64,000 bases of DNA from Escherichia phage vB_EcoM_Goslar. Of the stretch, positions 6,993 through 53,836 are shown piece after piece. Location of the stretch: sequence record NC_048170.1; one strand, given 5' to 3'. Position 1 is the stretch's first letter. Every line of letters begins with the position of its first letter. A model generated the notes under the pieces. That model had not been told where the DNA came from and made no database searches. It worked only from the letters and a program-made list of their open reading frames with translations. The position numbers were made by a program, and so were the translations under genes.

Positions 6993-8246
6993 TCACTTCG
7001 GAAGCTTAGAGGCCGCCATGCTTCGCGCCTTCGCAACGTCATACGCATCCATGATTGCATCACCGATAGCGGTATGACGGATCAACGGAATACCCATATC
7101 TGGATACTCTTTGGTACCTAAGATGGATACCGGTTTGTCTTGATATGCGGCAATCATCGAACGGATATCCTGAACCTGGTTATAACGACAAACTGGCTTA
7201 AAGCCTGCTTTACGGAACCAATGCTCTAATTGAGGCCAATCTGTTTCACCGCGAGCAAGATAATAGAAGGTATCCTTACCGTAGTAATCAGTAAACACTT
7301 CACGAATTGTGTTAATAAACTCGTTTACTTCGGCGATGGCTTCTTTATAATCCATCACTTTACTATGTTGAAAACAATAGTCACGCGCTTCCTTCGGTGC
7401 TTTGGTTTGCCACCATTCTACCGTTGATTCACTGATACGACCACCGTCGGCGATTTGACCGTGAACGTCAGGGAAGATATCTATACGTGGACCGTTAGCG
7501 ATGGATTCCGGATTAGCTAGATCAAAGAACACAATACCGATTTCCAGCAGTACCCCGTTCTTTTCCAGACTGAGATTCTCAACATCCAGACAAAAAGCGG
7601 GTTTCTCTACCGTTGAAAGATCAAAACGTCCCTCATATCGTGGTGCTGGCTCGGCACCAAGGAACGTCTCTCGGATGAACTGGGAGAATGTTATATTCTC
7701 TGCTACTAAATCAATACCCAATTTACTTAACAAAGGTATAAGTTCACGATCGTTCTGCTGAATTAGCAACATTACTTGGTCGTTGACACAACAACTAATT
7801 GAGTAAAAGAGATGAACGATATCTAACGGTTTGTACGGAGCCTCAAAAATATGTGTCTGGAACGATTGGGCTAGCGCCTTATGCGTTTCTTCACGATGAT
7901 TCATCAGTTGGAAAATAGCACAGCGCAGATAATGTCGAAGTGTTATCTCGTGAAGATGCGACGTATCTTCTTGAAATAACGTCATGAAACCGTGATACGT
8001 ATAATACTCTCCTCTTTTAATTTCTTCGTGGAGTTCTTTGTTCCCCTTTATTTCTTCTGGCGTTATCGGGTCGATCTGATCACGGATAATGTTGAGTAGA
8101 TCATCGCCGTGTACCTTAAACAGTTTTTCAACGTCAAGATTAGGTAATGTCGCAATCGCCGCGTACATTAATGTTTCTGCGGGATTAAGTTCTTTATTGT
8201 CGATTGTGGTGGTTAAAGCCATTTTATTATACCTCATCGAAATCAA
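6993..8246 (-). CDS. hypothetical protein with C-terminal DnaQ-like 3'-5' exonuclease motifs
   Basis: FCLDVEN (Exo I D-x-E), LEIGIVFFD, HTAIGDAIMDAY (Exo III H-x4-D). Confidence 0.45.
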   Translation of the reverse strand: MISMRYNKMALTTTIDNKELNPAETLMYAAIATLPNLDVEKLFKVHGDDLLNIIRDQIDPITPEEIKGNKELHEEIKRGEYYTYHGFMTLFQEDTSHLHEITLRHYLRCAIFQLMNHREETHKALAQSFQTHIFEAPYKPLDIVHLFYSISCCVNDQVMLLIQQNDRELIPLLSKLGIDLVAENITFSQFIRETFLGAEPAPRYEGRFDLSTVEKPAFCLDVENLSLEKNGVLLEIGIVFFDLANPESIANGPRIDIFPDVHGQIADGGRISESTVEWWQTKAPKEARDYCFQHSKVMDYKEAIAEVNEFINTIREVFTDYYGKDTFYYLARGETDWPQLEHWFRKAGFKPVCRYNQVQDIRSMIAAYQDKPVSILGTKEYPDMGIPLIRHTAIGDAIMDAYDVAKARSMAASKLPK

Positions 8247-19953: not shown

Positions 19954-21528
19954 TTACAATTCAAAATCTTCATCGATAACACGCTGGGTAAGCACCTTGT
20001 CGCTGAAGAACTCCACCTTGCGCTGATGGTATTTACGGTGCGCTTCGATAGATGTACATACCAGATACCAGAACGTTGGTGTCATTCCTTCGAACTTCCC
20101 TTTCAGCTGACGTAGGCGTCCCAATACCTGAATGTTACCGGTTCGTGACCCCATCGCTAACGTCATGAACGTCATCACCAAGTCAGGGAGGTCGATACCT
20201 GTACCTGCCGATTTCACCGTCGTAACGCTGATATCGTTATCCAACAAGACCATGAAATCTTCTTCAGCAGTATAAGGACCAATCTCTAACTCAGGAATAC
20301 GTTCACTGAGATAATGCGATAACGACTTACACATATCAACGGTTGCACAATACACCAGCATCTTCATGCCTTCCTGATACTGGTTCATGAAACCTTTGAT
20401 GATAACGGTATAGATAAAGTTGAAATAGGCGAGTTTGAGTTGCTTGTTCTTCATGATAGACTGTTCGAATATCGTGTGAGAATAAGAACCCCCAAAGCCT
20501 TTGTATCTGACTTTATCTGTACTGCGTAATCGATACGTTACCGCATTTACCGCAATGTATTTCTTGTATTCGCATTTCGCATAACGTGCTTCTTTCGGAT
20601 ACATCAAATACAACATCCGTTCGATGAACGGATCGTCGGACACTGCCGTTGCTGACAGATAGATGATTTCCGGAATATTCGCGTAACACTTCACTTTGAA
20701 CAAGAAATGCAATGCTTCGTGACATTCATCATGGATTAACAACCCAATGCCTGTTTTCTCCCAGAACTCGACAGGATGGAAAACATAAGGTGCGACACAG
20801 TTGTTCTTTTCATAATCGGTTATGTATCTCTGAAACATGTTCAGCGAGAATAACGCAATTTTGAAATCCAGCTCACCTTGTTCCACCAACGTCTGGAATT
20901 CCAGCATGCTGTAACGAGGAATGTCTGGATGTGGTGGGTCAGATTGAGCTGTGCCACGTATCTCGATAACATCGCCCGGTTCCATACCGAAGAAACTTAG
21001 CAGTGAGCTACGCCAACCAGGCATGTATCTCGGTGACAGGATAATACCCGTCCGTACACCGCGTCGGAAGGTGATCTCCTGCGACATGGCTGTTTTACCA
21101 GACCCCGTGCCTGCGGTGTTTAAGCTCATTCTGAAGGGGGTATCCTTACCCCCGTCCATGTACTCCAACCATTCTTGTTGATCTTCACGCCACGGAAACT
21201 TCCATTTCTTTACGAACTCCACTTCCTTACCTGGCACTGGATCGTGATAAACGATTTCCAACCACTCTTTTCGGATTCCTCGAGAGAAGATAAAATCCAA
21301 AAACGATTTCAACTGTTCGCGGAGTAAGTATACCTCGCTATAATCGCTTCTCGCTGCGGCATACGTGTTTATGGTATCGGTAACCATTCTCCGTGTACGA
21401 GGGTCACGCCGTTTCCTCAGATGCAAACAACGGTCTCGAAGGTAATGGCCGATAAGATGGGCAAATCGAAGTCCGTATCCGCTCAGCCTCATGCCATGCG
21501 AGAAGACGTCGATACGAGCTAACTTCAT
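19954..21528 (-). CDS. SF2 DExH-box helicase
   Basis: Walker A GTGSGKT, motif II LIHDECHEA, motif VI-like GSRTGNIQVLGRLRQ. Confidence 0.6.
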   Translation of the reverse strand: MKLARIDVFSHGMRLSGYGLRFAHLIGHYLRDRCLHLRKRRDPRTRRMVTDTINTYAAARSDYSEVYLLREQLKSFLDFIFSRGIRKEWLEIVYHDPVPGKEVEFVKKWKFPWREDQQEWLEYMDGGKDTPFRMSLNTAGTGSGKTAMSQEITFRRGVRTGIILSPRYMPGWRSSLLSFFGMEPGDVIEIRGTAQSDPPHPDIPRYSMLEFQTLVEQGELDFKIALFSLNMFQRYITDYEKNNCVAPYVFHPVEFWEKTGIGLLIHDECHEALHFLFKVKCYANIPEIIYLSATAVSDDPFIERMLYLMYPKEARYAKCEYKKYIAVNAVTYRLRSTDKVRYKGFGGSYSHTIFEQSIMKNKQLKLAYFNFIYTVIIKGFMNQYQEGMKMLVYCATVDMCKSLSHYLSERIPELEIGPYTAEEDFMVLLDNDISVTTVKSAGTGIDLPDLVMTFMTLAMGSRTGNIQVLGRLRQLKGKFEGMTPTFWYLVCTSIEAHRKYHQRKVEFFSDKVLTQRVIDEDFEL

Positions 21529-23531
21529 AACGTGATTACATCCTCCGGTTTAGGTTCTTTACGCGGTAAAAGCATGTAGTCGATCGGATGATCCGGCTTC
21601 ATGGTTGGGATATAACTGTTCGGGTTTTGGAACGCATCCAGTTGCTCTTGGTGAGCGAACTTCATACTCAAGGAGCGCATGTTCATGTTCTTCTTGAAGG
21701 TACTGAAGTATCGTGTTGTTCCCTGTTTCGGCATGCGATAATCTTTCGTGTGTGGTGAACGAATCATGCTGGCGTAGAGAATAACATCGAGATGCGAAAG
21801 GTTCATTCGCAGACGCTGGGCACACAGACGATGCCAATAGTACAGCACGTTTGCAACTTCTTCCGGTGTCGCTTCGTCTTCCGAAAGGAATCCGGCACTG
21901 AAAGAACCTTTCCCGAATTTGAATTCACGTTCGATTTCTTTTGCGTATTCCATCATGTTTTTGTGGATTAACGGCATCTGGAATAACGTACGTGAATTGT
22001 CCCAATGTTTCAAGTCGAAAATCACAATCCCGTCAGACGTCACTTCCCAGCTATGGCGTTTAAGATAACGGATAAACGCTTTACTCGGGACAACGGGACG
22101 TCCACAGAAATCGAAATTGACTTTGAGCTTACGGTAGCTTTCATCTTTCCTGTCGTAAATCTCCATATCACAAAGCGTCATGTTAAACAGGCGTTGCGGT
22201 ATCAGCGAACTGATTTCTTCCGCTTCCGCTACATCGTACAACATGTTCGCAAGACCTAACTTCATCTTAATCAGCACGTGTTTACCTTTCAGCTCACGTG
22301 CGAGTTTGATGTCGTTCATATTCTGGCTGTAGCGAAGGATATGTTGATATTCCGGTGGGATTGGTGCTGTGGATACCGTTGACGAACCATCATGGTGTTT
22401 GGTAGAAAGAATGTTCTGCGTTACCTGTTGCGAACAGGTACGCGCTGCGCCATCGCCGACATTATCGGTTAGTGCGAAGTTATGACTTAATTCACCGTAA
22501 CACGTCGTACATACCCCAGCAGGATCGGGATGATGACAATAGTTAACGGAGCGCATACGCACTGTGGTGCCGATCAATTCTTTCATGTGTGGTTGTATCG
22601 CTACCAACGAACCGTCATCGCGAATAATGAATCGACCGTGGAAGCCACGCAGGTCGGTCTCATCACGGATTGGCATCGGGATGGTCTCTTTACTACCACA
22701 ATCTCCAGGATGGAGTCGTTGTACAACCGCTGTCGCTATCTGAAGTTCACGACCGAAATATTCAGACTTCTTGATCTGCTCTTTGTTGAACAGCAACGAC
22801 TTCGCCGCAGAACGACTTTCTTTCAAGCTGTCGGGAAGAGAGATCAAACCTGCCGCGTACGACCGCATTACTGGATCACGGAATATCTCGGAGTTAATAT
22901 CGGTCAAGAATCCACGCATCCCAATACACTGCAGCACCTGCCCAATCGAAACGTGTTCGGTTCGTACCGCACGCGCAATAGGGTTTGCGTGTAACGTTTT
23001 ATCGGTGCTCAGTACCTTGGTCAGTTTCTTGTATGCGCTTTCGATACCTTCACGGGTGGGTTCCGCTTCGGCGATGATTTTCTTAACTTCAGGATGTACG
23101 GTAATCTGATAAAAATCATCCGCGCAAATAGTCGTTACGTATTCCTCCAGCGCATACGTAAAGAAGTTATATACATTGTTAAACATATCGAACAATGCTT
23201 TCCAGAGAACCTCACGATTCTCTTGTGGATAAGCATACATGCATTGACGATACGCGGCGCTTTGCAACGCAACCGACGAACCAGCAGTAAACTTGCGTTT
23301 ATCGACCAGGTTCTCTTTTGTCAATGGTGTCTCAGGATACATGCGATGCACAGACCAGTGCATGTAACTAAAGAAAATGCGTCGCGCACGCAATTCATGA
23401 ACGCCATCGTCCATCTCGATATATACACGGTCATTAGGCTGTGCCCACTCGAATACTTCATCAACCGGCCAGTGCATAAGCTCGCGTGCCCTCACACGAC
23501 GTTTCGTGGTGGTCGTCTGTGTTATAGTCAT
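21525..23531 (-). CDS. multisubunit RNA polymerase beta'-like subunit, C-terminal part
   Basis: MRSVNYCHHPDPAGVCTTCYGELS parallels bacterial beta' RSVVSCDTDFGVCAHCYG, followed by a degenerate bridge-helix region. Confidence 0.55.
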   Translation of the reverse strand: MTITQTTTTKRRVRARELMHWPVDEVFEWAQPNDRVYIEMDDGVHELRARRIFFSYMHWSVHRMYPETPLTKENLVDKRKFTAGSSVALQSAAYRQCMYAYPQENREVLWKALFDMFNNVYNFFTYALEEYVTTICADDFYQITVHPEVKKIIAEAEPTREGIESAYKKLTKVLSTDKTLHANPIARAVRTEHVSIGQVLQCIGMRGFLTDINSEIFRDPVMRSYAAGLISLPDSLKESRSAAKSLLFNKEQIKKSEYFGRELQIATAVVQRLHPGDCGSKETIPMPIRDETDLRGFHGRFIIRDDGSLVAIQPHMKELIGTTVRMRSVNYCHHPDPAGVCTTCYGELSHNFALTDNVGDGAARTCSQQVTQNILSTKHHDGSSTVSTAPIPPEYQHILRYSQNMNDIKLARELKGKHVLIKMKLGLANMLYDVAEAEEISSLIPQRLFNMTLCDMEIYDRKDESYRKLKVNFDFCGRPVVPSKAFIRYLKRHSWEVTSDGIVIFDLKHWDNSRTLFQMPLIHKNMMEYAKEIEREFKFGKGSFSAGFLSEDEATPEEVANVLYYWHRLCAQRLRMNLSHLDVILYASMIRSPHTKDYRMPKQGTTRYFSTFKKNMNMRSLSMKFAHQEQLDAFQNPNSYIPTMKPDHPIDYMLLPRKEPKPEDVITL

Positions 23532-25596: not shown

Positions 25597-27765
25597 TTAG
25601 CTTTCGCAGTCATCTGCGTCGATGATTTGTCCGCCAGCAACGTTCAGCTGATGATACAGAATCCTCAACGCACGGTTGCCACCAATGGGATACTTCTCGA
25701 AGTTGGTTGCAATAGGAATCGCTGACGGCTTATCGGTCGCATAGATACTTTCAGTGATGCTATCCACCTGTTTTGGATTGTTCGCATAATCCATAAAGAC
25801 GCTTGCGAACCATCCGCCAGCAAAGGCGGTAACTTCGCGATGTTCAGATTCGCCACAGTAACGAGTTGGTTGCTCTTTACCCGGAGAACTGTATTTATCG
25901 CTATTACTGAGTTTCGACGGTAATCCATGCGCTTGCAATTTAGGAATACCCACAGCCGACCAATCGTTCGCCGTCTTCTCCAACATCATGATGTACGTGT
26001 CACCGATCGCAATATCGTTCTTGGTTGTCCGCCACTGCCCAGAACGCCCACGGTATCGTACAGGACCTTTCTTCAACGGGAACTCACGAATCAGATTCTC
26101 CATACGTTCTGAACCTGCTGCGATACTGTCCGTCGGGATATAAACTTCCGTACCGTGGCGTTGTACATACCGTAAATGATCCCATTTATCCTCATCCGTG
26201 ATACAGTATTTTTCAACAACCTGTTCCACGAATTCAGGACTGACGATATAGTAGTAACGCATTAGTGTGTTCCAAGCGGTCTCCAGATCGCCTGCATCCA
26301 TCACTGGTTTCAGTTCACGCATGATCTGATCGCCAACACCGTTGATGTAAGGTGCATTAACACGACTTAAACTCATCCTTTTGATTACCGTGCTATCGTC
26401 AAACATAAAGTCTGCAACGTTACCCCATTGGTCAACCGGCATCTCATCATCTTCCATGATGTCGGTTACGACGAATTTATCACCCGCCATACCAGTGAAT
26501 TTAAACCCGATACCTGGAACAACGTCGTACGTGTACGTGATGGTCACACGCCAATCATCGAGATTCTCTTTGCGGTAATCGCGGGTCGGTAACACATGAC
26601 GTAGCTGTCCATTAGGATTGCGGATATCAATACCATGTTCAGCATCAGCCAGGTTCAACCACCACATCACCGTTTGATGATGACGTATCGGCGTACCAAC
26701 GCGTTCACGTTCATACTTACGAACAGCATCCTGAATTCGGGTGTAAAGCAAACCGATTGCGTTCTCGTATTTCAGGAATTGACGATACGGAGGACGCATC
26801 TTCTCTTCCATCATAATCGCACGCTCGCGGGCTTGACGTCCAGAACGACGATGCCGGTCGCTGACAACATCGATATCCGTTACACGCGCATTCGGTTCAG
26901 CGTAAGTGAGGTCATCGTAAACATAATCCACACGCTGAAGATTACACGTCATCATGTCAACAACGCTGAGGATAGGATCTATTTCGCGTGTTGCTGCAAG
27001 TAACCCATCTTTACGAATACGCTCACCGTTCTCGGGTATTGCTTGATATACCTCATCATCGCCGTAGAGATTGATTGGGTATCGCGATTTACCTGATGTG
27101 ATTGTTCGCTTCTCAATGCCGGTACTGGTGAAATGTTTCAATACACCACGACGGGCAACACCACCATCCTCGATACACTGATAGAAGCTACCGAAACACA
27201 CTTTACAATCGCGACCGTAACCCCACTCGCGTGTTTCTTGATTGATCGCTGGGCTTTCCATCAAACGAGAATATCGCGGTACGATCTGGCCTCGACGGAG
27301 GGAATGGAACAAGTTGGTTGGTCGAAAACGGAAACCGTACTGCTGATGCATGATGTGATGCTCAGGCACTTCAAGCAAGCGTAGTTCGTGGCGGTTACCA
27401 TCCTCTTGGTTTTCATACAGCACGTAATGCATCGTGTTTGTTTTGATGCTGTTTGCTGTATGCCCCGGTTGGAAACGTGGGATGATATCTATGATGCGAG
27501 ATTCGACTGGAAACTCTACTGACCAAGTGTTCTGTCCGTACTGGTATTCAATCCCCGTCGTTAGTCGGGACGGTTTCGCATCTTTGATAACCAACGCTTG
27601 GCTAAGATGTCCACCAAACATCGCAGCGCGCTGTGCTGAGTTATAATGCAATAGCCCGTTAAGTCCAGTCCCTACGCCAGTATACTCCTGTTTAATGGGA
27701 ATGATTTTACCTTCAGCGATTGCCTGCTTCACAGATTCATAAAGAGGTTTTTCTTTATAATGCAT
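25597..27765 (-). CDS. multisubunit RNA polymerase beta-like subunit, C-terminal part
   Basis: GDKFVVTDIMEDDEMPVDQWGNVADFMF parallels beta GDKMAGRHGNKGV...EDMPYDENGTPVDIVLNP; YIMMLEK/GESEHREVTAF parallels YMYMLKL/GEMEVWALEAY. Start set at MHYKEK (ATG 27765, AGGAAG upstream) rather than the Ser/Arg-rich extension to 27930. Confidence 0.55.
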   Translation of the reverse strand: MHYKEKPLYESVKQAIAEGKIIPIKQEYTGVGTGLNGLLHYNSAQRAAMFGGHLSQALVIKDAKPSRLTTGIEYQYGQNTWSVEFPVESRIIDIIPRFQPGHTANSIKTNTMHYVLYENQEDGNRHELRLLEVPEHHIMHQQYGFRFRPTNLFHSLRRGQIVPRYSRLMESPAINQETREWGYGRDCKVCFGSFYQCIEDGGVARRGVLKHFTSTGIEKRTITSGKSRYPINLYGDDEVYQAIPENGERIRKDGLLAATREIDPILSVVDMMTCNLQRVDYVYDDLTYAEPNARVTDIDVVSDRHRRSGRQARERAIMMEEKMRPPYRQFLKYENAIGLLYTRIQDAVRKYERERVGTPIRHHQTVMWWLNLADAEHGIDIRNPNGQLRHVLPTRDYRKENLDDWRVTITYTYDVVPGIGFKFTGMAGDKFVVTDIMEDDEMPVDQWGNVADFMFDDSTVIKRMSLSRVNAPYINGVGDQIMRELKPVMDAGDLETAWNTLMRYYYIVSPEFVEQVVEKYCITDEDKWDHLRYVQRHGTEVYIPTDSIAAGSERMENLIREFPLKKGPVRYRGRSGQWRTTKNDIAIGDTYIMMLEKTANDWSAVGIPKLQAHGLPSKLSNSDKYSSPGKEQPTRYCGESEHREVTAFAGGWFASVFMDYANNPKQVDSITESIYATDKPSAIPIATNFEKYPIGGNRALRILYHQLNVAGGQIIDADDCES

Positions 27766-27796
27766 AGGACTTCCTATTATCGAATTGAGGTACGTC

Positions 27797-28150
27797 ATGT
27801 CTAACACGCCCCTGAACGACTTTCTTAAGACAAACCCCGATGACCTCATCCACGATCTTGATTTCAGGAACGTTGTTGAGATGCATCTGGAATATTTCAA
27901 AAATGCCGGACTGGTCTCTACGATAGACATACCACCCGAACGCGCCTACGAATTCGATGGTAACTTTTATGGATTGTGTCGTGTTCTGCTCGGCGAGGGT
28001 AGCGAACCAATGCACTGGATCACCCTGAGACTCAATGGTTATCGCGACCCTACGGAATACACCGCCGATGTTCTAACCATGAAGATTGTCGATACAAGCG
28101 CAATCAACACATTAAAACAACAGTACCGCACAATCCACTACAGCGCTTAA
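27797..28150 (+). CDS. hypothetical protein
   Basis: ATG 27797 with GAGGT 6 nt upstream; 117 aa; followed by GC hairpin. Confidence 0.4.
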   Translation: MSNTPLNDFLKTNPDDLIHDLDFRNVVEMHLEYFKNAGLVSTIDIPPERAYEFDGNFYGLCRVLLGEGSEPMHWITLRLNGYRDPTEYTADVLTMKIVDTSAINTLKQQYRTIHYSA

Positions 28151-40214: not shown

Positions 40215-41654
40215 CTTACGTGCACCGACGTTTATTAACTCATGGTTATCCACTGAAATACGGCGTTAGGGAAATAATCCTTCTTGCCGCGTTTTGAGAT
40301 TTGCAATGCCATATTACTCGGAGACAATCTGTAATGCCATGCTGCTTCATCGATAGAACTAAACTTCTTTGTTTCACCGTTATCAAAGATGATTTTCAAC
40401 GCCAGTTTAGGTAAATCGTCTTCCGTTTCTACTAATTCGAAAGAATCGATATTCTCTGCCAGCGTCAACGGATCAACTGGTAATATCAGCCAACCAGCAC
40501 GCTGCAATCCTCCACGTAGACTAATTTGTTTATTCAACGCAGGGGTAGCCATGCCAACTAACTTAGCAGCCAGCTTGCGGTCTTTAATATAAAGACGATA
40601 ATCTCCGGTATTATTAATAGCATACACACCAAAGTTATTGAACGATACCTTTCCAGCATCGGAACTAGTAAAGCCTACAAAGTCGTGGCTGTCGGTAGCC
40701 ACGTCGTATTTAAATGCTAATGGCTTGTTTCGACTGCCGCTAAGATACTTCTTGGCTGTAGATACCGATATGTTGAGATATCGTCCAATAGCATTCAAAC
40801 TTTCTAGTTCGATGATTTCTCCTGTCAATATGTCCTTTAACCGAACATTACCCATCGGTATTGGTGGTTTACCGACATAACCCAATTCACGATATGCGTG
40901 TTTCAAGTTATCTGAATCAGTAGCCCATTCCAAATTTTCTAGTCTGTTATCCCAACGCACCCCATTAAGATGATTAGGGACACGACGGATTATACCTGAC
41001 GTCGGATCTGGGTTAAATGTTTCAAGGACAATCTGATGATGGTATTTCACTTTATTGTTCCTAGTGAAAGCGCGATAGTTGTTTTTGCCCGACTTGGGTG
41101 GTTCAGTACGAAACAACACTGTCAGACTAGACACATCTACTATCGTACCGTTCTTATTAACAACGATACCATCAAAACCATTAACAGGACGATAATCAGA
41201 CAAACAATCTTCAGAAATTGCCTGTCCAACTAAAGGTTCACTCAATTTGACCTCCTTTATAAAAGAAGTCGGTGCACGTAATTATCGACTATATCTTCAT
41301 CCTCGTTGCGAGGAGTCTCCCGTTTTGGTCTGTGTTTAACAGAGCCTACTCTACTCGACATCGCGTCTTTCGATAGTCTGTGAGCACACATCTTAACGAA
41401 CATTCGTGGATTCCTAAACAGGTGAACGTTCTTGTTGAGATGCTTCGCTGCGGATTATTCCCGTCCTACCTCTTTTACCCTACCCAGTTCATTACGCTGG
41501 CCCTCATCTGTGTCACCACGATGAGTTGGTGTGTAGTCCGATTACAGAAACTTCCCGTCAATTAGAGAGTTTTAACTACGTTCCTGTTACCAGAAACCCG
41601 ACTCCGACGATATCAATAAATCAACGTAAGTTATTGATTTAATTGAAGAAACTG
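40215..41654 (-). mobile_element. putative group I intron 1 carrying an HNH homing endonuclease gene
   Basis: Minus-sense P AATTGACGGGAAG (41563-41551), Q AATCCGCAGC (41456-41447), R CTCACAGACTATCG (41384-41371), S AAGATATAGTCGA (41297-41285). Candidate internal guide GAGTCGG (41604-41598) pairs with the exon 1 end CCGACTT with G-U at the splice site. 14-bp inverted repeat (41268-41281 and 40216-40229) encloses the ORF; terminal G at 40215. Confidence 0.6.
40235..41245 (-). CDS. HNH homing endonuclease (intron-encoded)
   Basis: KYHHQIV...VPNHLNGVRWDNRLENLEWATDSDNLKH matches the HNH motif; C-terminal helix-turn-helix-like regions; TTG start 5 nt after AAAGGAGGT. Confidence 0.75.
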   Translation of the reverse strand: MSEPLVGQAISEDCLSDYRPVNGFDGIVVNKNGTIVDVSSLTVLFRTEPPKSGKNNYRAFTRNNKVKYHHQIVLETFNPDPTSGIIRRVPNHLNGVRWDNRLENLEWATDSDNLKHAYRELGYVGKPPIPMGNVRLKDILTGEIIELESLNAIGRYLNISVSTAKKYLSGSRNKPLAFKYDVATDSHDFVGFTSSDAGKVSFNNFGVYAINNTGDYRLYIKDRKLAAKLVGMATPALNKQISLRGGLQRAGWLILPVDPLTLAENIDSFELVETEDDLPKLALKIIFDNGETKKFSSIDEAAWHYRLSPSNMALQISKRGKKDYFPNAVFQWITMS

Positions 41655-42910
41655 AAGTCGGCATTATAACCTTTGAGGATCATCACGCTTAACCCGATGG
41701 TGTTATCCTGCGGATCGCGTTTAACCTTGGTGATTTCAAGACATTGGTTACTGCTTCGGTCAAGTGATGGGTTTCGAACAAAGCCACACACAATCCCATC
41801 GAACGGTGTATCAGCAATAAGCTCATCGTGCAGCTCGCTCATCATCGGATGATAATTACGGACATGTTCCGCAACGAACGCACGTGCTGCTCTCGGTGAA
41901 TAACCACGATGGAATAACTTGGATTGGATATGTTCTTTATTGGTTAAAGTAAATGGTGCGTATGGGAAATGCAGATGATAATAACGATGGTTCGCTGTTA
42001 TCGAACTGATTACAGTACGCGTGGTGAATGGATGTAATGTACCTAATATGTTTTTACGTGTAATACCTTTCTTCTTACCGATGAACTCATCGAAAATCGC
42101 CGCGTGGTATTGCAGCAGCTTCAATTGCACTTTCGCCATCCAGTTTTCTTTCTTTCTGGCGCTCAAAGGTGTTGTTGGATGATAGATACTATTCAACGTA
42201 CCGATAGCATCGATCGCACCTTCCATTTTGCTATCTGCATAACGACCGGTCGGCGTATTTTCGATAACGAACATCATGGCCGCAGGAAAGCTGATATACT
42301 GACTGAAGAACTTATCACGATGGATTCGGATGAATTCTCGTAGCGTGTCAACTTTCTCCGTGTTCTTCGGTCCACGTAACGTAGGTCCTTTATACAAGAT
42401 CTCCATGATGCGATCGAAGTTCTGTATAAAGCTATTTACGCCACGACGTATCCCGAATACATCGAATTGCTGCTCCAGATAGTTCTTGAGTTCGATGGGT
42501 CGTTTTACATTTGGACGGTAACTGGCATCAATGAGCCACGTCATCGTTTCAAAGCTTTTGATATTCAACTCGCTTGCCAGCACGAGATGGACCAACGGGT
42601 TAATGAACGCATCGATTCCTTCAGGAACACGCGCCCAAACCGTCGAACGAATCTCTTGTTCTGCTGGGTAGGTTACAACCGTTTTACAGTTTGGACACAC
42701 CGTGCCGAGTAGCTCACCACGATTGTAGAAACCACAACCACATTGTGGTGTGATATCCAACGTATCGCTGGAATAAACACGGGTGATAAAACTGTTTAAT
42801 TTCTTCTTCTCTTCGACGACTTTTGTATCGTAATCGTTCAACAAAATCGGCGTAAAAGGAAGTTCTGCGAGCTGTCTATCGAAACTCACGATATCGAGCA
42901 TGATGGCCAT
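41655..42910 (-). CDS. RNA polymerase beta'-like N-terminal subunit, exon 1
   Basis: Zinc ribbon CGCGFYN...CPNC; GITRKNILGTLHPFTTRTVI parallels [20 protein letters not shown]; ends ...LKGYNADF. The unspliced ORF then reads SFFN-stop. Confidence 0.7.
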
Positions 42911-43002: not shown

Positions 43003-44898
43003 TTAGAACAGGTTGAATGCCCCACCCATGTTGTTAACGCCAACATTCGGACGATCGCTACGTGCGTAGATGTTACCGGAGATGTTACCCAGACCACGAG
43101 CACGTGCTGCCATGTTACCACGAACAGCGGTACCTGCCAGATGCTGGATGTTCTCAGGACGGATGGTGAAGCCAGCATCAGCAGCGGCTTCGATCAGCGC
43201 CTGCAGTGCTAACGGATCGAAGTCGTAACGCATTGCCCAGCCGGTTTGTTCCCAGCTACCAGACAGAACACGATCGATGATTTCGTGACGAGCGACAACA
43301 CGCTGAGACATCGTCATATCGGTACGGTCGAAGCTGTCTTCCCAAGCTTCTACGGTATCCGGGTTAGTGATGTTCATCATGTACAGATCGTCCATATCAC
43401 GAATATCGTGACGGTGACCATCCTGGTGGTTGTAGTGACCCAGCGGGATACGGTTACCGGTAGCGTAGACCAGCGGTAAGCCGTATTGATATTTCTTGCT
43501 GAAGCAACCCAGGGTAACATCATCGAACGCACGGTAAAGCGCTTTGTAACCTTCGGAGATTTCACGGACTTCACCTTCAACTTTGCCCGTATAGATCTTC
43601 TCAGCCGCCGGGATCATACGCAGCAGCCAGCTGTACTCACCTTCTTCCGGTACGTCGATAGAAATCAGCAGAGACGGATACAGTACCTGTTGCAGGAACT
43701 TGTAAATCTGCTCGTTGGTTTGAGTGGACAGATCCAGCGGTGCGGTAACTTCCGGATCCAGTACCATCGCCAGAGCACCCGGGTTATGCGGACCAATACC
43801 ACGGGCAGCGTTGCTGATTAAAGACTGTGCCCACGCCATACCGCTGTTCAGCGTAGCGATGGTGCCAATCAGCCCCAACACGAAAGTGTTCGGCGTGAAC
43901 GCATCCAGCTCCAGCGGGTAAGCGCTGGTCATCACGTAACGCGGCTGGTATTGTACAGTCGGCGGTACCGGATAACCGTTAACCAGAACAGGGCCTTGGT
44001 TGAAGGTCGGGTTCTGCGGGCTGTAGGTCAGGTCGATGTAACCGGTGGTGGCGACCAGACGCTGTTGACTATCGTAATCGCTCATCGCTTGACGGATACG
44101 GTTAGAGATAGTTACAGTGATGTCAGAACGCACAGGGTTACCAACAATATCGCTGTCCTGCATACCGCTGGTGTTATACTGAACGCTGCTGATTGGCTGA
44201 TCGCTTGCCATCATGCCCAGGTTGAACTGCGGCAGACCCAGTTTATCACCGAGACGGATTTCGATCGCGGTTTGGATTGCGTTATCTGCAGCAGACAGCA
44301 GGGTGGTTGCCAGATGCGCAGATTCAGCGGTGATTTCATTGGTCACCACAGCCAGACCAGCGATACGAGCAGTACCATTAGACTTACCGCCAATAGCTGC
44401 ATACATTGCCGCCATGACTTCGTTGATGAACGTACCGTTCAGGTTATCAACCCAGGTACGCGGTACCAGAATGTTACCATGCGGACCTTGTTCTTCACGA
44501 CGCGGCAGCGGAGCCAAACCGGCAACCAGCGGAAGCACATAACCAAAGAAGTGGTTATGGTCACCAACTTTTGCACCACTCATAACGACCAGGGTCGGAT
44601 ACGGTACGCTGTACTGGTTCGGGTCAACCGCAACAAAGATGAAGTCGTCTTTGAACCGGGTATCTTCCAGATATTTCTCCATCAGACGACGGAGATTCAG
44701 TACCTGCTCGGAGCCAGTATTACGGCTAATACGACGGCTCAGTGTACGGTTGATCGTACGCATCGTATGAGTTACTTTAGGCTGGCCAGCAAAATCTGCA
44801 GCGGTTTCCAGCGCCTCATCAGCACGTTGTGCGGTGCGGGTTTCAGCTGCACGAATTTCTACATTATCGTTACCGTTATTACGTACGTCTAAGCCCAT
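43003..44898 (-). CDS. abundant structural protein candidate: chimallin-like nuclear-shell protein (alternative: capsid or sheath protein)
   Basis: 631-aa ORF with codon usage that looks strongly biased; promoter-like motif 67 nt upstream; sits immediately upstream of the beta'-N gene, the arrangement I recall for the phiKZ shell-protein and RNAP genes. No diagnostic motif seen by eye. Confidence 0.45.
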   Translation of the reverse strand: MGLDVRNNGNDNVEIRAAETRTAQRADEALETAADFAGQPKVTHTMRTINRTLSRRISRNTGSEQVLNLRRLMEKYLEDTRFKDDFIFVAVDPNQYSVPYPTLVVMSGAKVGDHNHFFGYVLPLVAGLAPLPRREEQGPHGNILVPRTWVDNLNGTFINEVMAAMYAAIGGKSNGTARIAGLAVVTNEITAESAHLATTLLSAADNAIQTAIEIRLGDKLGLPQFNLGMMASDQPISSVQYNTSGMQDSDIVGNPVRSDITVTISNRIRQAMSDYDSQQRLVATTGYIDLTYSPQNPTFNQGPVLVNGYPVPPTVQYQPRYVMTSAYPLELDAFTPNTFVLGLIGTIATLNSGMAWAQSLISNAARGIGPHNPGALAMVLDPEVTAPLDLSTQTNEQIYKFLQQVLYPSLLISIDVPEEGEYSWLLRMIPAAEKIYTGKVEGEVREISEGYKALYRAFDDVTLGCFSKKYQYGLPLVYATGNRIPLGHYNHQDGHRHDIRDMDDLYMMNITNPDTVEAWEDSFDRTDMTMSQRVVARHEIIDRVLSGSWEQTGWAMRYDFDPLALQALIEAAADAGFTIRPENIQHLAGTAVRGNMAARARGLGNISGNIYARSDRPNVGVNNMGGAFNLF

Positions 44899-46313: not shown

Positions 46314-48467
46314 TTATTCTGCGGTTTCTTGCTTCGGTAAATAACTTGCTGCAATGTCTTGGGCTAACAATGTATTGTTTTTATTCGAGATGAAAATACC
46401 GTAACTTTCCATTAACGCGTAATACGAACGAACGAGCGTAGAGATCAATCGACGAATATCCATACCTTGAATAAAGATATCAGGAAGCCCGGAGGCTTCG
46501 ATCACCGGTAATGGTATCGTTAAGTTGCTTATCGTTTTCTTATCGTTACGTACAATCCAATCACGGAAACGTTGTTGTAACCCTTTATCCTCCCAGGAAT
46601 CAATCCAATCGTTAAGAAGCGTTTTGTTCTTCGTCGCCAACGGCACACGAACCCCAACATAGGGCGGTTCCTGGCAATGGCCGTACGATTGAGCAAACAC
46701 CTCTTCCCACATATCGTAAGACTGTTTCGTTACCGCAACATGTGGCTTCACTTTAACACGTGTTAAGAAATCGGGATCACCTCGTTTCATGGACTCAACG
46801 ATTTCGTTTTCTAACGAGATAATATCATCAAGAACCAATCGAATGCTGATCTTCTCGTTACGTAACAGCTTATCCATGATACCACACATCATGCGTTCAA
46901 CACGTTTGACGATCATTTTTGGTGCTGACGCGTCACGCATAACCGGACCTTTCAATTCCAGCTTCGGTGGGTTGATAGGAACCCCCTCACGCATGGTCAT
47001 GTAACCGTAATAGTTTTTACCCATCGAGGTTAACGACAGAATCAAGAACATATATTCGTTCTTCATTTCCATCACGTACATATGCTCTTTCGCTACACCG
47101 ATATTACCAGAACACATCGCCATCAGATGAACCGTAATCTGCGTAACCAGATAGATAAGCGTATTTGCTAAGCGCGTCGAAACTGGATTGATCTCCATAT
47201 TTCCAAATCGCCACTGCACCCACTCCTGGCAGGTAAACACCGTCGAGTCGGTATCAGACAACACACCCACTTCACGGATTGCTGATGGGAAAGCATAAAC
47301 GCCAGCCGGTTGGTTCTCGGTACGCCAGAATGCCATAATCAAATCTGCGTAGCTTTGAATACGCTGTAGCATTAATTTTGTCGTCGCCGCAGTAAGACGA
47401 TAACCAAGTTCATTTCCTTTTTCTAGCGCTACGTAAATCGCTTCCCCGTTCAAGAACTCCGTGCATTGTGCTGTAATCCAAGCGACCGTGTTGTTATCCA
47501 TGGAAGCAATAATGGCTTTAGCCTCTTCCATCGTTTCAACAGGTTCGGATGCCAGCTCACATAACGAGTCAAGAAAATCTCGAACAAATTCAGGATTAAG
47601 CTCACGTAACGAGTACAGGTTATTGCTGTACATGTAGCAGGCACGTTCCAACGGTGTTAAACCGGTAATTAACTCCCGGATAGTCAGTTCTTTCTCTGGG
47701 TCGAAAGTATATCGATGCAAGCATTTCGATACGTTAGCCCAAACCTCTTCCGGCGTAGGGTAATGTAGTTTGTATTTTACCATTACCTGCTCAATGGCTT
47801 TGCGATCGCTGTTACGAACAATACTTACGATGTTTTCAATTGCGATATCACAATCGTAATAATGGAAATTGCCCGCAAGGAAGCGTTCGTTGTTCGCATT
47901 GGCTGAACCTGAAGCACAGCGACATGTTGTCGTTAAACTTGGATGCGCGATCGGATTATAAAAAGGGTTAAACTTGGACGCCTGGGTTCCTGACAAACTG
48001 TTGTTGTCTAACTTGGTGTTGGTTTGTCGTTTATCGTGTAACTCAGCTTCGTCTTTACGTCCGTGTGCTTGCGCTATCGACATTTGTTTCTTTTGTTTCT
48101 TACGCAACTTACCGTTTTCAACCGCGAAGTCGCTTAGCACACTGGAACGTGTTTCACGTGGATAACAGTTAGCCCATACCGGCGTGATAATTAAATTATT
48201 TTCTTTAATATCATTGAAGTATTGGCTGAACTTGATGACTTCTTTTTCACGATTTCCTTCGGTACGCTGTGTTAATACAAGACAGTCGGGATCAACCATC
48301 CCGTATTTTCCACCGGGACGAACCGTATCAAGGACAAACTGCAACGCTTCCTGCTGTGATATCCCACGCATGCGCATTAAGAACAGGGTATAATCCTGTA
48401 CCGCTTCTTTGGTCATATCCAACGTACGACCATATCCGTTTTCATCGTAAAAGAACGGATTTTCCAT
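46314..48467 (-). CDS. hypothetical large protein
   Basis: 717-aa ORF; contains VLSDTDS, superficially like a polymerase motif C, but no other polymerase motifs confirmed. Confidence 0.5.
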   Translation of the reverse strand: MENPFFYDENGYGRTLDMTKEAVQDYTLFLMRMRGISQQEALQFVLDTVRPGGKYGMVDPDCLVLTQRTEGNREKEVIKFSQYFNDIKENNLIITPVWANCYPRETRSSVLSDFAVENGKLRKKQKKQMSIAQAHGRKDEAELHDKRQTNTKLDNNSLSGTQASKFNPFYNPIAHPSLTTTCRCASGSANANNERFLAGNFHYYDCDIAIENIVSIVRNSDRKAIEQVMVKYKLHYPTPEEVWANVSKCLHRYTFDPEKELTIRELITGLTPLERACYMYSNNLYSLRELNPEFVRDFLDSLCELASEPVETMEEAKAIIASMDNNTVAWITAQCTEFLNGEAIYVALEKGNELGYRLTAATTKLMLQRIQSYADLIMAFWRTENQPAGVYAFPSAIREVGVLSDTDSTVFTCQEWVQWRFGNMEINPVSTRLANTLIYLVTQITVHLMAMCSGNIGVAKEHMYVMEMKNEYMFLILSLTSMGKNYYGYMTMREGVPINPPKLELKGPVMRDASAPKMIVKRVERMMCGIMDKLLRNEKISIRLVLDDIISLENEIVESMKRGDPDFLTRVKVKPHVAVTKQSYDMWEEVFAQSYGHCQEPPYVGVRVPLATKNKTLLNDWIDSWEDKGLQQRFRDWIVRNDKKTISNLTIPLPVIEASGLPDIFIQGMDIRRLISTLVRSYYALMESYGIFISNKNNTLLAQDIAASYLPKQETAE

Positions 48468-48530
48468 AAATCCTCCAAAAGTTATTTAGTCTGTCTACAT
48501 CATCTCGTATATCTGTTAAAAAAGAAGGAC

Positions 48531-48570
48531 GGCATAAAAAAGAACCGATCCAGCCGAAGCCAGATCGGTT
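48531..48570 (-). terminator. rho-independent terminator, minus orientation
   Basis: Stem aaccgatc/gatcggtt; minus-sense RNA continues UCUUUUUUAUGCC. Confidence 0.55.
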
Positions 48571-48765: not shown

Positions 48766-49179
48766 TTACTGATTAATCAAGTCGTTAGCAACAATCTTGG
48801 TGTAACCTGCCTGATTAAGAATCTGATTAATTTTCGTTACGTCGGTCGCATCCTCAATAACGATGCTGGGTTTATAGATCAGCGTCTTGGTAACGACGAT
48901 TGTACTCTCCTTAATCCAAGGAATCCCTAGAATCACATACTCGCCATCGGCTGTAATGACCTCGACGTAATTGTATTTCGTCGGATCGTTCGGTACACTA
49001 GACGGGAGCCGGGAATAAATCTGTTGGTGAATGGCGTCTACATCACGGCCGTTGCGCACAGCCGTACGATAGTTGTACACGGCGCTAATTTCTACTCCGT
49101 TGAAGTTAACCCCAAGTTCTGGGGCGTATACATCAAAACTCACAACAGAGCCAATCTTTTCTAAATCAGAAGCTGGCAT
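48766..49179 (-). CDS. hypothetical protein
   Basis: 137-aa ORF. Confidence 0.45.
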   Translation of the reverse strand: MPASDLEKIGSVVSFDVYAPELGVNFNGVEISAVYNYRTAVRNGRDVDAIHQQIYSRLPSSVPNDPTKYNYVEVITADGEYVILGIPWIKESTIVVTKTLIYKPSIVIEDATDVTKINQILNQAGYTKIVANDLINQ

Positions 49180-52855: not shown

Positions 52856-53836
52856 TTAGAAAAGCAAGAAACCGCTATTCTTCGCTTCCGCTACAGTTTC
52901 GTCACCAACTTTCGGTGCTTGTTGACGTGCGTTACGATGTTCGATGTAACGTTTCGCTTCGTCAGCGATTTGTTTGATAATACCCCCTAAACGATCGGTA
53001 CTTAAAACAAACGACGTCGCTTCACGAATCGGGCTGCTTTCAGGCACAAAACCATCACAGCTATAAATAGCGCTAACACCCATGACTTTTGTCGCGTCTT
53101 TCGGATAAAGCGTACAGAAAGCAATCGGGCTATCGTTCTCTTTCGTCCATTCGTATCCCATGAACGTATTCAGTTCGGTGATCGTCGGTTCCAAACCGGT
53201 AACACGTGGATGGTTTAAGAAGTTTTCCAGGTCGGCGCTGTCAAGACGACGGTTCTCGCCAGAAAACAGAACACAAAGCTGGCTAATAACAACCTGCACG
53301 TCCAGGTTGACATCCTGCTCCGATTTCCCATTTTCGCCATTCATGTGATAGCTAACAATCACTGGACGTTTCAACCCTTCTGCAGCCGCCATCAGTCCTT
53401 TGAAGGTGCGATCGGCGTTGATCGTCTGGCGCTCATCATCGAACGAGGCAACGATACAACACACCACACGTTCACCGCGTTCCAGCAGGTTAGCAACCAA
53501 CGCAGGACCGGCAACAGAACCTGAACCACCGCTCAAACTAAAGACCACGATATTAAATTTACCTGGCGTATGCTTATTGAGAATACCTGGGATTTGTGAA
53601 CAGATCAGTTCAGCGTTCTCATCACGCTTCTTACCAGAACCGTCTAACTCACGACCAGCTGCATCTTTAAAGATGTAAATATGATCGTCGCCCAGTGTGC
53701 TATCGCGTAGGTTAGCGCGGCTGGTATCAACATACGTCATGCTGTGTAATCCTTTCGCGACTTCGCCTTCAAATGCTGAGCCGATTTCGCCACCACAACC
53801 ACCGACAGCCCAAATATGTACTTGGTTCTCTTGCAT
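52856..53836 (-). CDS. phuZ: tubulin/FtsZ-like GTPase, PhuZ-like
   Basis: N-terminal VHIWAVGGCGGEIG (FtsZ GVGGGGxN-like) and FSLSGGSGSVAGPALV (tubulin signature GGGTGSG-like); about 326 aa with an acidic C-terminal tail. Confidence 0.65.
   Translation of the reverse strand: MQENQVHIWAVGGCGGEIGSAFEGEVAKGLHSMTYVDTSRANLRDSTLGDDHIYIFKDAAGRELDGSGKKRDENAELICSQIPGILNKHTPGKFNIVVFSLSGGSGSVAGPALVANLLERGERVVCCIVASFDDERQTINADRTFKGLMAAAEGLKRPVIVSYHMNGENGKSEQDVNLDVQVVISQLCVLFSGENRRLDSADLENFLNHPRVTGLEPTITELNTFMGYEWTKENDSPIAFCTLYPKDATKVMGVSAIYSCDGFVPESSPIREATSFVLSTDRLGGIIKQIADEAKRYIEHRNARQQAPKVGDETVAEAKNSGFLLF

Follow-up and report, generated by a model that had tools for sequence, protein, structure and literature searches.

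A divergent family-B DNA polymerase subunit of Escherichia phage vB_EcoM_Goslar whose missing motif A probably resides on a separate exonuclease subunit

The gene described here lies on a 64,000-nucleotide stretch of the genome of Escherichia phage vB_EcoM_Goslar (record NC_048170.1), referred to below as the window, and encodes a protein of 717 amino acids (aa) whose translation includes the stretch REVGVLSDTDSTVF. The window, which is unmistakably that of a nucleus-forming jumbo phage, also carries the genes for chimallin and the tubulin PhuZ, three split genes of the beta type of a multisubunit RNA polymerase (RNAP), and genes encoding SbcD, helicases and the large terminase (the coordinates of the features are collected in Table 1). 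A previous sequence-only reading of the window had reported the 717-aa open reading frame (ORF) and, within it, a VLSDTDS motif reminiscent of motif C of family-B DNA polymerases (PolB); the boundaries of the ORF, its minus-strand orientation and its ATG start are borne out, and the motif is indeed there, as S404-D-T-D-S408. The tetrapeptide DTDS appears once in the six-frame translation of the window, with a chance expectation, calculated from composition, of ~0.01 for a protein of 717 aa and of 0.27 for all the long ORFs together; taken alone, it is weak evidence. The motif exceeds chance because it is conserved across 63 diverse homologues (24-64% identity), the alignment of which underlies all conservation counts given below for this chain.

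The 717-aa protein matches the Pfam family PF20286 (divDNApol) over its full length, residues 9-705 aligning to profile positions 3-704/705 with 681 bits (cut-off 25.7; E 2.4e-204), as well as PHROG 2927 ('DNA polymerase'), also full-length, with E 2.5e-206, and it displays every testable defining feature of PF20286. Using tblastn, we found homologues in 304 phage records, essentially all from jumbo phages, with hosts among Pseudomonas, Erwinia, Salmonella, Vibrio, Serratia, Aeromonas, Klebsiella and Ralstonia; they include EL, SPN3US and 201phi2-1, whose gp83 is annotated as similar to phiKZ gp50 and EL gp21. The protein is the orthologue of phiKZ gp50, EL gp21, 201phi2-1 gp83 and SPN3US gp18, and represents a deep-branching, divergent lineage within a known enzyme family: its identity to any GenBank/INPHARED phage protein is at most 36%, and its nearest public relatives are metagenomic (99, 64 and 58% identity). 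The family was discovered computationally (Kazlauskas & Venclovas, 2011, as 'PolBrPhiKZ'; PMC3201878) and was later characterized by a long helical insert, an SH3 neighbor and the lack of a fused exonuclease (Iyer et al, 2021; PMC7824862).

An AlphaFold2 (AF2) model computed from the 63-sequence alignment has high confidence (mean predicted local distance difference test, pLDDT, 91.3; predicted TM-score, pTM, 0.87), and the top 50 Foldseek matches to this model are all family-B polymerases, with TM-scores that are low because of the helical insert and the domain arrangement. The other high-scoring fold matches extend over <150 aligned residues, these being helical bundles that correspond to the insert. 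Searched against the PDB, the 63-sequence profile retrieves the polymerases of RB69 (E 8e-6) and poxvirus (3e-5), and Pol zeta/delta (~4e-4). The structure prediction and fold search that the sequence-only reading had proposed as a check thus return a polymerase-like fold, and its leading suggestion, a diverged family-B DNA polymerase, is upheld by PF20286, PHROG 2927 and the profile matches to RB69, poxvirus, Pol delta and Pol zeta. We estimate at about 0.8 the probability that the 717-aa protein is the polymerase subunit of a divergent, two-polypeptide family-B replicative polymerase of nucleus-forming jumbo phages (Chimalliviridae).

The same searches bear on a different proposal, namely that the enzyme serves chiefly as a primase or primase-polymerase, which would account for the lack of a DnaG or AEP primase in these phages. 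Iyer et al raised this idea for the group-1 jumbo-phage polymerases since no primase is detectable, and the sequence-only reading had likewise listed a primase-type or an unrelated enzyme among its options. We found no support for either: the Pfam, PHROG, PDB-sequence and fold comparisons gave no similarity to AEP or DnaG, and the significant matches are all to elongating family-B polymerases. A mainly priming role is therefore very unlikely, while de novo priming might possibly be an additional activity.

We located the catalytic motifs by aligning the family to RB69 polymerase with HMMER (Table 1). The region of R122 and K126 aligns to RB69 437-505. The block that follows it aligns to RB69 554-570 (TAQINRKLLINSLYGAL) and to poxvirus polymerase 627-696, and is a clear motif B at residues 152-160, although none had been recognized in the sequence-only reading; K152, N156 and G160 are invariant, S157 is kept in 58/63 sequences and S159 in 61/63. 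In motif C, D405, T406, D407 and S408 are invariant (63/63) and S404 nearly so (62/63), and the motif lies in the catalytic beta-hairpin of the palm. The KxY region, with K484, Y486 and E494 invariant, aligns to RB69 705-758 (E 8e-6 for the chain); T179 is among the other invariant residues. In RB69, R482 and K486 contact the triphosphate, and other residues of the motifs act as metal ligands or as the steric gate.

Table 1. Positions in the window of the polymerase-subunit gene, of its motifs and domains, and of neighboring features.
Feature	Coordinates	Strand	Basis and remarks
Polymerase-subunit gene (717 aa; fingers, C-terminal palm, thumb)	46314..48467	minus	ATG start; ORF listing
Ribosome-binding site GGAGG	48472..48476	minus	4 nt 5' of the ATG; read from the sequence
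R122-K-K-Q-K126, first finger helix	48090..48104	minus	R122 and K126 invariant (63/63); equivalent to RB69 R482 and K486
Motif B, K152-L-D-N-N156-S-L-S-G160 (KxxxNSxSG)	47988..48014	minus	Equivalent to RB69 K560-G568 (HMMER)
Helical insert of ~200 residues (roughly 200-397)	47277..47870	minus	Family-specific; between the T179-x3-R183 helix and motif C
Motif C, S404-D405-T406-D407-S408, palm catalytic beta-hairpin	47244..47258	minus	Short flanking strands in the AF2 model
KxY motif, K484-N-Y486, followed by E494-G495	47010..47018 (K484-Y486)	minus	Equivalent to RB69 K706, Y708, E716 and G717
C-terminal thumb, ~residues 510-717	46317..46940	minus	Helices and strands in the AF2 model (517-709)
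Intrinsic-terminator-like hairpin (12-bp stem, TTCG loop, T-run)	48543..48570	minus	Consensus scan and sequence; between the SH3DP and polymerase genes
SH3DP gene (137-aa SH3-fold protein)	48766..49179	minus	PF20287, E 1.3e-36; directly upstream of the polymerase gene
Overlapping ORFs of 160-210 aa	49191..51557	minus	Upstream of SH3DP
Chimallin gene	43003..44898
PhuZ tubulin gene	52856..53836
Split RNAP beta-type genes	21525..23531, 25597..27930, 41639..42910
HNH endonuclease ORF	40235..41245	minus	Within the segment 40217-41281
417-aa exonuclease gene	6993..8246	minus	DexA/Rv2179c-like

Between R183 and D405 lie ~220 residues, all helical and confidently modeled by AF2, which contain the family-specific insert; in classical family-B enzymes, only a few tens of residues separate the corresponding helix from motif C. 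The N-terminal ~77 residues, which have no RB69 counterpart, comprise two helices and one hairpin; F5, Y12 and R14 are conserved among them. The thumb ends in an L-x-x-x-D704 tail (D704 kept in 54/63) that has been discussed as a possible clamp-binding-like motif (Kazlauskas & Venclovas; PMC3201878).

The family-wide NSxSG form of motif B differs from RB69 in that S159 replaces Y567. In RB69, this tyrosine reads the minor groove and checks fidelity; its replacement by serine may have a bearing on fidelity or on the tolerance of modified bases.

That the protein would be a decayed, non-catalytic relic of a polymerase, kept for a structural or regulatory role, is hardly credible in view of this map. 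Its divergence from classical PolB and its lineage-specific substitutions (C101/Y102 shift, F201, N283, N485, V579, I664) could be read in that sense, but the family-invariant catalytic and deoxynucleoside triphosphate (dNTP)-binding residues are all intact, the ORF is full-length with a good ribosome-binding site, and the sequence is 99% conserved across independent metagenomic copies, with 9 substitutions and 0 in invariant columns.

What is missing from the chain is motif A and the exonuclease, as the sequence-only reading had rightly observed. Across the 63 sequences, there is no acidic column conserved at ≥85% before E194, and a D-x4-Y-P in motif-A context is found in no frame of the window or its flanks. 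The chain, which starts ~120 residues before the fingers, contains no exonuclease motif and no Pfam exonuclease match. We attribute these absences to the motifs being carried on a second polypeptide in this family.

The published view is that of a self-sufficient polymerase with all catalytic residues in one chain, the exonuclease being a loosely associated proofreader. Kazlauskas & Venclovas (2011; PMC3201878) considered that the EL protein has all polymerase domains save the N-terminal/exonuclease region, and assigned D229 and D398 (the latter equivalent to D407 here) as the catalytic Asps of EL gp21; Iyer et al (2021; PMC7824862) described a complete RRM palm with an insert, and the confident AF2 model of the monomer is also in line with this view. 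However, D229 comes after motif B, where the helical insert begins, an order that is wrong for a PolB palm, and we rejected it as the motif-A Asp; its column (D221 here) holds Asp in 36/63 sequences only, and no other conserved acidic residue is found ahead of motif B. From these alignments, the 2011 assignment of D229 appears to be an alignment artefact.

A textbook motif A with its steric-gate Tyr is present, and invariant, on a partner: a separate subunit family of ~600 aa represented by EL gp51 (601 aa), a type of exonuclease considered in the literature as a stand-alone proofreader. Homologues of this exonuclease subunit occur in 289 phage records versus ~304 for the polymerase subunit, essentially the same set, and in the six relatives that we checked its gene is found 30-54 kb downstream from that of the polymerase. 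We aligned eight of them (from the EL, OBP, phiKZ-like, SPN3US-like, Psa21, Moabite, RP31 and pEa_SNUABM_48 phages). All eight display the three DEDD exonuclease motifs and, near the C-terminus, an invariant D-x-D-[VIL]-x2-[AST]-Y-P-x6-N-x4-T block, corresponding to D491, D493, Y498, P499, N506 and T511 in EL gp51. In the HMMER alignment, the block falls on RB69 407-430 and its spacing is identical (D411, Y416, P417, N424, T429); it is collinear with Exo I/II (RB69 106-230) and Exo III (281-347). The ~90 residues that follow motif A have no RB69 counterpart.

To a larger scale, an exhaustive hidden Markov model (HMM) search of 1.84 billion representative proteins yielded 962 exonuclease-subunit clusters. 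Among the 149 of these 962 whose representatives are listed (<50% mutual identity), all those reaching the region (143/143) carry D-x-D-x4-Y-P, 108 of them with the full strict motif, and the six others are C-terminally truncated. A database search with the exonuclease alignment returned only relatives from the EL clade. The assignment of motif A to the partner is thus supported by collinearity, exact spacing and invariance, and we find it quite probable, on the strength of these comparisons, that motif A lies on the exonuclease subunit throughout the family, contrary to the 2011 assignment. A partner acting solely as an exonuclease would leave the invariant motif A without explanation, and we consider it unlikely that the 717-aa chain is catalytically complete on its own.

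In the arrangement that we propose, the 717-aa chain would supply the fingers (R122, K126, motif B), the motif-C hairpin (D405-T-D407), KxY, the thumb and the ~200-residue insert, and the partner would bring in the first strand of the palm, whose motif A holds the steric-gate Tyr as well as the first catalytic Asp, along with the 3'-5' exonuclease and the N-terminal domain. The two proteins would assemble into one enzyme, with the C-terminal motif-A strand of the exonuclease subunit completing the palm sheet beside D405/D407, such that the two-metal site and the sugar gate would be composite, built from both chains, and proofreading would be performed by the DEDD site of the partner. We speculate that the N-terminal ~77 residues of the polymerase subunit and the ~90 residues after motif A of the partner are candidates for the interface. 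Since these phages have no known sliding clamp (PMC3201878), SH3DP and the helical insert would be candidates for DNA binding or processivity, a hypothesis put forward by Iyer et al (PMC7824862). Overall, we regard it as probable that the two chains form an obligate heterodimer whose active site is composite, that the enzyme is split at a position in the palm unreported for other natural split PolBs, and that the D229 assignment in EL gp21 is wrong.

Several points weigh against this proposal. Proteins of the 717-aa type have been described as holding all polymerase domains (PMC3201878, PMC7824862), and heterodimerization and the composite site are inferred. The motif-A stretch taken alone scores ~0 bits against RB69 by HMMER, below threshold, and low pLDDT can also be read as simple disorder. 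Moreover, the exonuclease subunit of vB_EcoM_Goslar itself was found neither in the 64-kb window (exonuclease HMM, six frames, filters off, no match at E<1) nor within 10 kb beyond either of its ends. Among the matches listed, degenerate DNA patterns for motif A also gave none on the two IMG/VR contigs of this phage, an uninformative negative given that the pattern fits ~86% of the family.

The region 30-54 kb from the polymerase gene, which holds the exonuclease gene in relatives, is here filled by other genes, indicating that the locus has been rearranged in this phage. The same motif-A patterns recovered >350 chimallivirus exonuclease loci from IMG/VR, whose neighboring genes are at most 39% identical, none coming from a close relative. 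A deep lineage with an atypical partner, suggested by the failure to find one with a pattern fitting ~86% of the family, is less likely.

Other proteins of the region were considered as partner and rejected. The 417-aa exonuclease is a DEDD enzyme of the DexA/Rv2179c type (PF16473) present in only 19 phage records, mostly from phages other than chimalliviruses, and is not retained as the proofreader. The conserved core ORFs of the window left without assignment have no Pfam match and no match to the exonuclease HMM at E<1. Beyond the window, small ORFs and an NAD-dependent ligase are encoded on the left, and tail/virion genes lie on the right, along with the gene for a 577-aa protein adjoining the terminase. 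The exonuclease gene adjoins the large-terminase gene in ~12 chimalliviruses from IMG/VR; the 577-aa protein carries no exonuclease or motif-A signature, scores negatively against two exonuclease HMMs and has no family match.

Two of these loci deserve description in their own right. In the 417-aa protein, the DexA/Rv2179c-like 3'-5' exonuclease domain occupies residues 219-401 and is preceded by a 217-residue N-terminal extension that matches nothing; the phages encoding its relatives infect mostly Stenotrophomonas and Xanthomonas. The ligase, ~6-8 kb past the left edge of the window, is a 691-aa protein with a BRCT domain, downstream of which is a run of small proteins with faint matches to sigma-70 region 4 and helix-turn-helix domains.

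Compared with phiKZ gp50, EL gp21, 201phi2-1 gp83 and SPN3US gp18, the 717-aa protein aligns end to end and shares the invariant residues, the ~200-residue insert before motif C, the absence of a fused exonuclease, the upstream SH3DP and the nuclear-shell neighborhood. It differs from these phiKZ-type subunits by its low identity (≤36%) and by a few lineage-specific substitutions at usually conserved columns. With respect to classical PolB, it has the palm, fingers and thumb fold with motifs B, C and KxY, but neither motif A (DxxSLYPS) in the same polypeptide nor fused N-terminal and exonuclease domains. RB69 and T4 gp43 are single chains, whereas the enzyme here is cut between motif A and the next palm strands; the insert before motif C is an addition relative to RB69, and the fingers are shorter, with 26 residues from K126 to K152 versus 74. 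We predict from its motifs that the protein works like a family-B replicase and belongs to a split chimallivirus subfamily.

Two-polypeptide PolBs are known elsewhere, in the T4-like phages 44RR, 25, 31, 65 and 133 (gp43A/gp43B), in Methanobacterium thermoautotrophicum and in Rhodothermus phage RM378. In these enzymes the two polypeptides must combine; split PolBs, whether natural or engineered, show activity once reconstituted as pairs, and an engineered split Pfu recovers all of its activity (PMC3061061). Unlike in these natural cases, the division here is between motif A and the fingers, and in relatives 30-54 kb separate the two genes. The poxvirus polymerases E9/F8 give the best profile match for the fingers/motif-B region (E 3e-5), and Iyer et al reported polymerases of the nucleocytoplasmic large DNA viruses (NCLDV) as closest relatives by profile comparison (PMC7824862). 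Poxvirus polymerases also share the presence of lineage-specific inserts and of processivity solutions other than PCNA, but they are single chains with a fused exonuclease, and their inserts are located elsewhere and are non-homologous.

Directly upstream of the polymerase gene, the SH3DP protein, whose Pfam entry is titled 'SH3 fold domain associated with phage DNA polymerases', is homologous to EL gp20, which has the same position in EL; this SH3DP-polymerase neighborhood has been described (PMC7824862), and the protein is a candidate accessory subunit of the polymerase. From the SH3 gene, the order runs through the polymerase, a virion gene of opposite orientation, the nuclear shell and RNAP beta ... 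to SbcD, as in EL gp20-gp30. Given the strong terminator-like hairpin between them, the SH3DP and polymerase genes may not be simply co-transcribed. Further upstream are overlapping ORFs without family assignment, the starts of which differ slightly among related contigs.

The polymerase gene is an ordinary core replication gene of jumbo phages and can be annotated with confidence. The presence of motif A on the exonuclease subunit would refine two published descriptions and correct the 2011 assignment; it would also change how the enzyme is expressed, modeled and mutagenized, as both subunits would be needed and mutations aimed at fidelity or sugar selectivity would belong in the partner. DNA replication by these polymerases takes place within the phage nucleus, with neither a clamp nor a primase known, which makes a correct subunit map a prerequisite for reconstituting the replisome.

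Among other features of the window, a 1,065-bp segment (40217-41281) containing the HNH endonuclease ORF is absent from metagenomic copies that are 97-99% identical. The copies without it carry 367 bp that are lacking here at 41668/41669, in the 3' end of the adjacent RNAP beta-type gene, and the RNAP beta-type protein beside the HNH gene is 423 aa long here versus 449 aa in those copies. Judged from these sequences, the segment looks like the insertion of a free-standing homing endonuclease with nearby sequence replacement.

Finally, the polymerase is at most 36% identical to those of sequenced phages, yet the same genome of ~235 kb recurs in many metagenomes. No DNA match to the phage was obtained by megablast in INPHARED phages, complete E. 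coli genomes or PLSDB plasmids, and no relative was found in the GTDB representative genomes. Metagenome assemblies from ENA, JGI and Logan repeatedly contain this phage as contigs of ~235-238 kb, as does IMG/VR, in which two contigs encode the polymerase. The phage is abundant; its terminase protein has index entries in 283 collection blocks, and it is present as a single contig in two NCBI bacterial isolate assemblies, GCA_012646185.1 (AASYRG010000004.1) and GCA_008101945.1 (AAJPOR010000002.1).

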